This document shows positions 20,682-21,038 of a DNA stretch of 64,000 nucleotides, piece by piece. The DNA comes from Chloroflexota bacterium. GTDB taxonomy: Bacteria; Chloroflexota; UBA11872. The stretch spans positions 2,056,620 through 2,120,619 of the forward strand of contig OZ240251.1 of assembly GCA_965198285.1 (NCBI GenBank), read 5' to 3'. The translations under genes and the position numbers were made by a program. Numbering within the stretch: the stretch's first letter is position 1; each line of letters begins with the position of its first letter. Under the pieces are notes generated by a model that was given only the letters and a program-made list of their open reading frames with translations, searched no databases and was not told the DNA's origin.

Positions 20682-21038
20682 CTACGCTTCAGCGCCAGCC
20701 AGTTTCTGATAGGCGTCTGGGTCGAATCCAAAGATCCGAACCTCGCCGTCCGCGAGCACGGGGCGACGAACGAGGTTCTGGTTCTCGAGCATCGACTCCA
20801 GCGCCTGCGTGTCATCGATGCTGTCGCGCTCAATCCCCAACTTGCGGAATGAGGGACTGCGCGGGTTGATGACCTCGCGTAACGAATGCGACCCGCCGAT
20901 CGCCCGGATCTCGTCCTTGGTCAGCGGCTTCCGCGCGTAGTCACGCGGCTCGTAGGCCACGCCAGTTGCGTTCAAGGCCGCACGGGCCTTTCGGCAACTC
21001 GTTCAGGTGCTCTTGAAGTAGAACGTCGGCGGCGCCAC
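20682..21038 (-). CDS. ArsC/Spx/YffB-family thioredoxin-fold protein with in-frame TGA at the CxxC position (candidate selenoprotein; alternatively a nonsense pseudogene)
   Basis: GGAGG, 6 nt, then GTG (21038). The product reads [14 protein letters not shown](21005-21003)[35 protein letters not shown]...LVRRPVL. This aligns with Spx [17 protein letters not shown]...RRPII. A hairpin at 20965-20998 lies downstream of the TGA. Confidence 0.6.

Follow-up and report, generated by a model that had tools for sequence, protein, structure and literature searches.

The 64,000-nucleotide (nt) stretch of Chloroflexota DNA analysed here (contig OZ240251.1, positions 2,056,620 to 2,120,619; hereafter, the window) carries on its minus strand, at 20682-21038, a gene of 118 codons interrupted by one in-frame TGA. 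Judging from its sequence, this locus is very probably a genuine selenoprotein gene of a known family, encoding a 118-residue protein with an ArsC/Spx thioredoxin-like fold. A preliminary description of the same DNA had proposed it as a candidate selenoprotein with selenocysteine (Sec, U) at the first Cys of a CxxC motif, giving U-T-S-C, and this proposal is now supported by the conservation of the UGA, by the selection acting around it, by a Sec/Cys pair among homologues and by the selenocysteine insertion sequence (SECIS)-type hairpin that follows it.

Direct reading of the minus strand placed a Shine-Dalgarno sequence, GGAGG, at 21049-21045, adjoining the TAA stop (21052-21050) of an upstream Zn-dehydrogenase gene, followed by a 6-nt spacer (tctttg) and a GTG start codon at 21038-21036. 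The TGA occupies codon 12 (21005-21003), where the first Cys of CxxC would stand, and the second Cys of this redox motif is encoded by a TGC at codon 15 (20996-20994). Downstream of the TGA the frame reads on to ...NLVRRPVL... and closes at a TAG (20684-20682). The program-made list of open reading frames (ORFs) contained for this locus only a truncated, TTG-initiated ORF of 97 amino acids (aa) at 20682-20975 on the minus strand, which we consider an annotation artefact. The preliminary description had noted the GGAGG, spacer and GTG, the 118-codon frame, its TGA and the lone 97-aa fragment, and all were present where it had placed them.

To follow the TGA through related organisms, the DNA was compared with that of 18 related Chloroflexota species-representative genomes, several of them with sponge-style metagenome-assembled genome (MAG) names and several being complete chromosomes. 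TGA was found at the identical codon 12 in all 19 genomes of this clade (the window plus the 18 relatives, with proteins 77-89% identical), and no lesion besides the TGA was detected in the clade genes. Upstream of the TGA, the fetched DNA of the relatives kept the N-terminus, the GGAGG and a GTG or ATG start. The GGAGG itself was common to the 16 clade loci examined, 14 of which harboured TAAGGAGG, with TGAGGAGG in L007 and CAAGGAGG in L016. Pairwise Nei-Gojobori comparisons within the clade gave ratios of non-synonymous to synonymous substitution (dN/dS) of 0.018 for codons 5-11, just 5' of the TGA, and 0.012 for codons 13-26, just 3' of it, with 0.15 for codons 27-118 and 0.14 over the whole gene; synonymous differences were present 5' of the TGA (TTC/TTT 9:9, TAC/TAT 13:5). 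Codons that a nonsense mutation would have released from selection thus belong to the most constrained ones of the gene. The preliminary description had suggested looking for purifying selection in the codons that flank the TGA, and had listed as damaging to its proposal close relatives with TGC and no conserved hairpin, as well as relaxed selection or additional lesions 5' of the TGA. We found the contrary on each count, since the 18 relatives all carried the TGA together with the same hairpin, and the lesion-free codons upstream of the TGA were as strongly selected as stated above. In protein databases, 57 close homologues (76-91% identity) were retrieved, and all 57 were stored as 92- or 97-aa truncations.

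A wider survey made use of a hand-written DNA pattern derived from two motifs located away from the codon-12 column (D-Y-[AS]-[RK]-x-P-L-[TS] and N-L-x-[RK]-R-P), which was run on a collection of 185,579 species genomes and for which about one chance match was expected. The pattern returned 51 loci, 50 of them readable in frame, and the codon-12 column of these 50 comprised 46 TGA and 4 TGC. Clade Chloroflexota accounted for 17 loci, all with TGA, and the 33 non-clade loci were divided into 29 with TGA and 4 with TGC (Cys). The non-clade TGA forms originated from Acidobacteriota/Blastocatellia, Binataceae, soil 'delta proteobacterium' MAGs, Nannocystaceae, Haliangiales, other Myxococcota and other MAGs. 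More distant homologues (33-39% identity) had TGA in three Blastocatellia genomes and one Myxococcota genome, and TGC in one homologue from Binataceae; taking together the pattern search and the homologue reads, the TGC forms were L019, L044, L049, L062 and L068. Moreover, an exhaustive HMMER search against 1.84 billion representatives (at 50% identity) yielded 375 relatives and, among the best 150 of these, 65 were cut off right after the codon-12 column and 54 contained CxxC. The orthologue column that the preliminary description had proposed to inspect for Cys or Sec is occupied by such a pair across phyla, and the subfamily carrying D-Y-[AS]-[RK]-x-P-L-[TS] appears to be predominantly Sec-containing in at least four phyla (46 out of 50 species-level genomes). 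Within Binataceae (L019, L031, L045, L061, L062 and L068), TGA and TGC forms coexist in one family, which suggests that Sec/Cys interconversion has been recent and repeated. In the database (proteins P0332-P0450), clusters of 116-aa Cys proteins and clusters of 95-aa truncated (Sec) proteins each number in the dozens.

The hairpin is located inside the coding sequence (CDS), at 20965-20998 on the minus strand, and consists of a lower stem GUUGC/GCAAC, an internal loop, an upper stem AAGGCC/GGCCUU and the apical loop CGUGC. It folds as the preliminary description had drawn it, with the loop, which had been placed about 18 nt from the UGA, beginning 18 nt past that codon; the bSECISearch paper reportedly uses a spacing rule of 16-37 nt. 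Within the clade, the codons that form the upper stem and loop (codons 17-22, AAG GCC CGU GCG GCC UUG) were invariant in 18 species, four-fold sites included. In the clade CDS alignment, just two stretches of 8 nt or more were invariant, one being this upper stem-loop (nt 51-68) and the other the codon context AGC ACC UGA ACG AG around the UGA (nt 28-41; 20998-21011 of the window, minus strand). Synonymous divergence was 0.26 in the constrained hairpin region vs 0.40 elsewhere, and RNAalifold recovered the same hairpin from the clade alignment, with 98% of cells paired. For folding energy, the 42 nt that follow the UGA had a z of -2.9. In the non-clade TGA forms there is a hairpin of a different sequence, whose apical loop, in minimum-energy folds, lay in the range of 18-22 nt past the UGA (starting at 20-22 nt) in 27 of 28 distinct forms; for the 28th (L043) the fold chose an alternative, and the same hairpin sequence was nonetheless present. 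In a sub-alignment of 13 of these sequences, 98.9% of cells paired and 3 of the 7 pairs changed on both sides (C-G/U-A, A-U/C-G and A-U/G-C). The covariation score of this sub-alignment was 0.227, compared to 0.094 for shuffled alignments, none of which reached it in 500 attempts, and all slid controls collapsed. Of the 28 distinct non-clade Sec forms, 26 have AGU or GGU as their apical-loop codon, and each of the four Cys forms has AGC or ACC, indicating that the loop GU is kept only where a UGA must be decoded. The hairpin shows the bacterial SECIS geometry claimed in the preliminary description, which agrees with published descriptions of these elements (PMC1088965), and it covaries in distant homologues. 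As in the E. coli fdhF-type bacterial SECIS, the hairpin is found in the CDS immediately 3' of the UGA and exposes at a fixed distance a small apical loop with a G (GU); unlike it, the window hairpin has an unrelated sequence, and the binding of SelB is here a proposal.

Several observations weigh against reading the locus as a selenoprotein gene with its own SECIS, most of them concerning the hairpin. In a 61-nt context its folding energy was not significant (z = -0.69), and the z values of outgroup hairpins ranged from -1.7 to +0.7. The clade hairpin showed no compensatory double changes, only wobble-compatible one-sided ones, and it contained mismatches (C-A in two sequences, U-U in one). 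A second sub-alignment, of 12 sequences, was not significant and displayed a single C-G/G-C exchange, brought about by synonymous Ala and Leu changes; furthermore, the groups for both sub-alignments had been split by us according to fold register, and the sequences are phylogenetically related. The Cys forms keep partial hairpins of -10 to -15 kcal/mol, so part of the hairpin structure may follow from the amino-acid sequence. These partial hairpins resemble the fossil SECIS structures described in Cys homologues (PMC1794560). Scans with Rfam, both at gathering thresholds and in permissive mode, matched no SECIS family, a null result that is uninformative because Rfam holds no general bacterial SECIS model for the gene. 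It is the comparative data, and not the folding energy, that put the hairpin beyond chance. Beyond the hairpin, no selA, selB, selD or tRNA-Sec was present in the window plus 74 fetched loci, which amount to about 585 kb, less than 2% of a genome, and are uninformative either way. Lastly, a functional partner gene conserved across phyla was looked for and none was found, the neighbours being entirely different in other phyla. The Rfam scans returned nothing but noise, such as a weak RybB-like match opposite the hairpin, at 20947-20991 on the plus strand (21.5 bits vs a gathering threshold of 40, E=0.03), a score that the hairpin's reverse complement almost certainly reached by chance.

The Sec machinery had been searched for with ARAGORN for tRNA-Sec (window and 73 loci) and by tblastn with E. 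coli SelA and SelB and with a SelD sequence. Pfam annotation of 30 of the 47 window genes disclosed no sel genes, and no convincing second selenoprotein emerged when the window was scanned for further genes interrupted by TGA. TGA ends about 17 of the 47 likely window genes, including Pfam-verified SDR, MPG, Amt, UvrD and MFS genes with complete domains; since it is an ordinary stop codon for these genes, the recoding would be site-specific and involve no reassignment of the code. The Sec trait has been documented in Chloroflexi and Acidobacteria (PMC1794560), and BSepDB has some of its richest selenoproteomes in Dehalococcoidia MAGs, at 46-49 selenoprotein genes (PMC13326102). Both records lend indirect support to the existence of the Sec machinery in these organisms, as does the long maintenance of the UGA and the SECIS in dozens of species, which is hard to explain otherwise.

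According to the mechanism that we propose, the UGA at codon 12 would not act as a stop, and the mRNA hairpin starting 5 nt downstream would function as a bacterial SECIS. Its apical loop, 18 nt past the UGA and containing GU, would recruit SelB-GTP-Sec-tRNA(Sec), leading to the insertion of Sec. Sec12 and Cys15 would then constitute a U-x-x-C redox centre, a motif that lies at the start of the first helix in homologous Spx/ArsC structures, and this centre is expected to cycle between the selenol/thiol and selenenylsulfide states.

Three other explanations of the TGA were considered. It could have arisen in an ordinary CxxC ArsC/Spx-like gene by a single TGC-to-TGA nonsense mutation, or by a sequencing error, leaving a pseudogene: the two codons are one base apart, gene callers stop at TGA and Cys forms do occur in the family. 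Nevertheless, 18 out of 18 other clade genomes and 29 genomes outside the clade, from several phyla, share this TGA, the gene has no further lesion, dN/dS on either flank of the TGA is 0.01-0.02, and the assemblies are independent, coming from different projects and technologies, which makes a shared artefact implausible. With the TGA conserved across the clade and across phyla and selection intact on both sides, a pseudogene was rejected, and we give it practically no chance. The UGA might instead be recoded as Trp, Cys or Gly, through near-cognate or suppressor tRNAs or through a lineage-specific change of the code, with the hairpin merely stimulating read-through. That the inserted residue is known by inference, and that the Sec machinery was not located in the roughly 585 kb scanned, speaks for this view, but TGA ordinarily terminates about a third of the window genes, and the position is that of the nucleophilic Cys of a CxxC, a classic site of Sec/Cys exchange (PMC1088965, PMC1794560). 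In addition, the distance of the hairpin and the G/GU of its loop fit a bacterial SECIS, the loop GU is lost in Cys forms, and use of Sec is known from the phyla involved (PMC1794560, PMC13326102). We regard decoding of the UGA as a standard amino acid as very unlikely. It is likewise hardly plausible that the UGA truly ends an 11-codon leader, with the ArsC-like domain made separately from an internal TTG or ATG (97 or 92 aa) and the hairpin serving as a coupling or attenuation element. The TTG at codon 22 is indeed invariant, an ATG is present at codon 27 in many relatives, and databases contain products of exactly 92 and 97 aa. The invariance of the TTG, however, is accounted for by its being part of the 3' arm of the hairpin, and the codon-27 ATG is not conserved, being replaced by V, L or I codons in several genomes including that of the window. 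Moreover, codons 13-26 (dN/dS 0.012) are in frame with the upstream part and supply the remainder of the CxxC along with helix 1, the truncated product would be deprived of strand 1 and of the redox motif of the fold, and the Cys homologues are contiguous full-length proteins.

As regards the protein itself, the preliminary description had recognised an ArsC/Spx/YffB-type product upon read-through, in agreement with the matches obtained in Pfam (PF03960), NCBIfam (TIGR01617) and the PDB (Spx and YffB). Profile scores were computed for the window protein with Cys in place of the stop codon. The Pfam ArsC domain PF03960 matched residues 7-112 with E=2.6e-17 (63.3 bits vs a gathering threshold of 24). 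TIGR01617 (Spx/MgsR) gave 78.9 bits vs a cutoff of 75.05, and Sec and Cys forms from other phyla scored 43-65 bits, below that cutoff. Among PDB structures, Spx 3L78 matched residues 5-110 with E=1.9e-15, B. subtilis Spx had an E-value of about 1e-11 and YffB 1RW1 one of 6.6e-14, while the R773 arsenate reductase was marginal (about 1e-3). The arsenate reductase model TIGR00014 reached 37 bits vs a cutoff of 106, and NF041106 gave the window protein 35.3 bits and distant relatives 22-38 bits, vs a cutoff of 85. In a multiple alignment, Sec12 and Cys15 were aligned with Cys10 and Cys13 of Spx (C10-T-S-C13). The window protein is thus nearer to Spx/YffB than to arsenate reductase. Spx (B. subtilis and S. 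mutans; 1Z3E, 3L78; TIGR01617) is its best match in structure and in hidden Markov model searches, and has in common with it a core of the same length, the position of the redox-active dithiol and the CTSCRKAR, RSxxFxKL and LxRRP motifs. Differences are the Sec in place of Cys10, the non-Firmicutes hosts, a Ser in the window protein at the position of Spx Gly52, which is variable in the clade, and an end at residue 118 without the C-terminal tail of Spx. YffB of P. aeruginosa (1RW1) and the ArsC-family reductases share fold, length and the character of small stand-alone proteins, but the aligned YffB has no second Cys (C-D-T-M), unlike the complete UxxC of the window protein. R773 ArsC (1I9D; TIGR00014) belongs to the same superfamily and agrees in the position of the nucleophile and in Arg94 (RP motif), whereas the window protein has no Arg107 loop, possesses a second Cys, scores weakly and lacks an ars operon context.

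These relationships leave three views of what the protein may do. It most likely is, as far as its sequence tells, a stand-alone thiol(selenol)-disulfide oxidoreductase or a redox-switch protein, and not an arsenate reductase; the stand-alone character is favoured because the neighbours differ completely across phyla. With the same recoding, the protein could be an Spx-like redox-sensing regulator that binds RNA polymerase and switches on a thiol- or electrophile-stress regulon when its U-x-x-C is oxidised. Such a role, which we consider unlikely though not negligible, would agree with TIGR01617 being the best NCBIfam model (just over its cutoff) and Spx the best PDB match, with the shared N-terminal redox motif, RSxxFxKL and LxRRP, and with clade neighbours of the carbonyl-detoxification type (AKR, MDR-ADH and SDR reductases). 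Spx Gly52 is required for contact with the C-terminal domain of the RNA polymerase alpha subunit, and against a regulator stands the alignment of this residue with a variable Ser/Ala/Pro position, along with the missing Spx C-terminal tail. Other arguments against it are that YffB, which is not an Spx-type regulator, scored almost equally, that distant family members fell under the TIGR01617 cutoff, that the neighbourhood is not conserved across phyla and that, to our knowledge, characterised Spx/MgsR regulators are confined to Firmicutes. That the mostly Sec-containing subfamily as a whole represents an Spx-like sensor contacting RNA polymerase outside Firmicutes is decidedly improbable; if true, it would be the first selenocysteine-dependent transcription regulator, with a selenol switch faster or of lower potential than the Cys forms. 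A Se-dependent arsenate reductase of the R773 ArsC type is suggested by the Pfam name ArsC, by the literature label 'arsenate reductase(-like)' (PMC2398784, PMC9312934) and by the alignment of Sec with the catalytic Cys12 of ArsC. This candidate, which we hold to be highly improbable, was rejected: TIGR00014 remained far below its cutoff (37 bits vs 106) and PDB ArsC matched only at E~1e-3, the catalytic Arg107 loop is absent, leaving the Arg60/Arg94/Arg107 triad incomplete, the motif is U-x-x-C as in Spx and not C-x-x-S, and no ars operon genes were found near the window gene or in the neighbourhoods compared across phyla.

The kind of gene described here was already known, since ArsC-like UxxC selenoproteins are listed both in the Global Ocean Sampling (GOS) study and in a 2022 review. 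ArsC selenoproteins with UxxS are known from the Sargasso Sea study (PMC1088965), the GOS study has an entry 'Arsenate reductase 2' (cd03032, UxxC) with 42 Sec and 238 Cys sequences (PMC2398784), and the 2022 review lists the family as 'Arsenate reductase-like protein, COG1393, UxxC' (PMC9312934); the preliminary description was therefore right that ArsC-like selenoproteins had been predicted from marine metagenomes (PMC2398784, PMC9312934). Like the window gene, GOS 'Arsenate reductase 2' is a computationally predicted family with an ArsC/Spx-type fold, Sec as the first residue of UxxC, Cys homologues and a SECIS-like hairpin directly after the UGA, a likeness drawn from motif and fold and not from comparing sequences. 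It differs in origin, as the GOS sequences are ocean-surface reads and the members found here are from Chloroflexota and from soil or sediment Acidobacteriota, Binataceae and Myxococcota. The NCBIfam family NF041106 (ArsC_rel_Se_1, 'ArsC family (seleno)protein') also groups ArsC-fold proteins including selenoproteins with Sec near the N-terminus, but the scores given above (35 bits, with relatives at 22-38, vs a cutoff of 85) place the window protein in a different subfamily; the failure of this model is consistent with the truncated public entries.

What is new is a well-supported Chloroflexota clade of members of the ArsC-like UxxC kind, together with a subfamily that appears mostly Sec-containing across several phyla, the covariation of its SECIS and the loss of the loop GU in its Cys forms. 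In the public records seen, the gene appears as a 92-97-aa fragment in the Chloroflexota clade and as a 95-aa one in Binataceae-type relatives, named arsenate reductase or Spx. Sec forms are present there only as truncated products, and for Cys forms the records use the names Spx/MgsR regulator or arsenate reductase family protein. Because the entries are truncated and NF041106 misses them, the number of subfamily members in the proteomes and selenoproteomes of these Chloroflexota, which include several sponge-named MAGs, is underestimated. The gene would imply that these Chloroflexota depend on selenium and spend Sec on a small Spx/YffB-like redox protein. With coexisting Sec and Cys forms and synonymous compensatory changes in the SECIS, the subfamily constitutes a natural experiment that may be useful for training SECIS and selenoprotein predictors. 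The finding does not overturn current understanding.

In the window, the selenoprotein gene is preceded by a co-directional gene for a Zn-dependent dehydrogenase of the MDR family (21050-22057, minus strand; PF00107, E=1e-23), with which it probably forms one operon in the window genome. It is followed, also co-directionally, by an RraA-like/aldolase-family gene (19926-20630, minus strand; PF03737, E=5e-22) that is 93-95% identical in all clade loci. The block characteristic of the clade comprises genes for an MPG glycosylase, an aldo-keto reductase, the Zn-dehydrogenase, the ArsC-like protein, the RraA-like protein, a CxxCxxCC-domain protein and a short-chain dehydrogenase. In 8 of 16 relatives (L002:1977-2937, L005, L008, L011, L012, L014, L016 and L017), an insert of about 0.9 kb separates the Zn-dehydrogenase and selenoprotein genes and encodes a hydrophobic, membrane-like ORF of 224 aa (L002:2130-2804). 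The loci with the insert keep a decaying duplicate of the last 10-40 codons of the dehydrogenase gene, together with the TAAGGAGG junction, directly 5' of the selenoprotein start. At L006:1-130 (contig VXPS01000179.1, as for L027), the first codons are missing at the contig end and AGATGTTTAAAAGACACAG stands in their place, a sequence that looks like the remnant of a transposase adaptor and probably reflects an assembly or trimming artefact in that MAG.

Elsewhere in the window, 14725-17973 contains 23S and 5S rRNA genes with no 16S upstream, a solute-binding-protein gene (12486-14390) being found there instead. The genes for tRNA-Ala(UGC) and tRNA-Ile(GAU), whose usual place is the 16S-23S spacer, form a divergent pair about 8 kb from the 23S (25723-25798 and 25901-25976), an arrangement that is not an assembly artefact, since the same pair is present in the clade relatives L030, L034, L040, L052 and L059. 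An ORF of 829 aa at 8893-11382 (minus strand) has gene-like codon-position GC and no Pfam match at E<=1e-5. On the plus strand, genes for a UvrD-like helicase, a HAD-family hydrolase and an ATP-dependent DNA ligase (LigD/Lig1-type domains) follow one another at 36937-42083 and may represent a repair module. Also on the plus strand, 32126-35481 harbours together a circularly permuted ATP-grasp gene, an unannotated ORF and a transglutaminase-like gene, an arrangement that recurs in bacteria.

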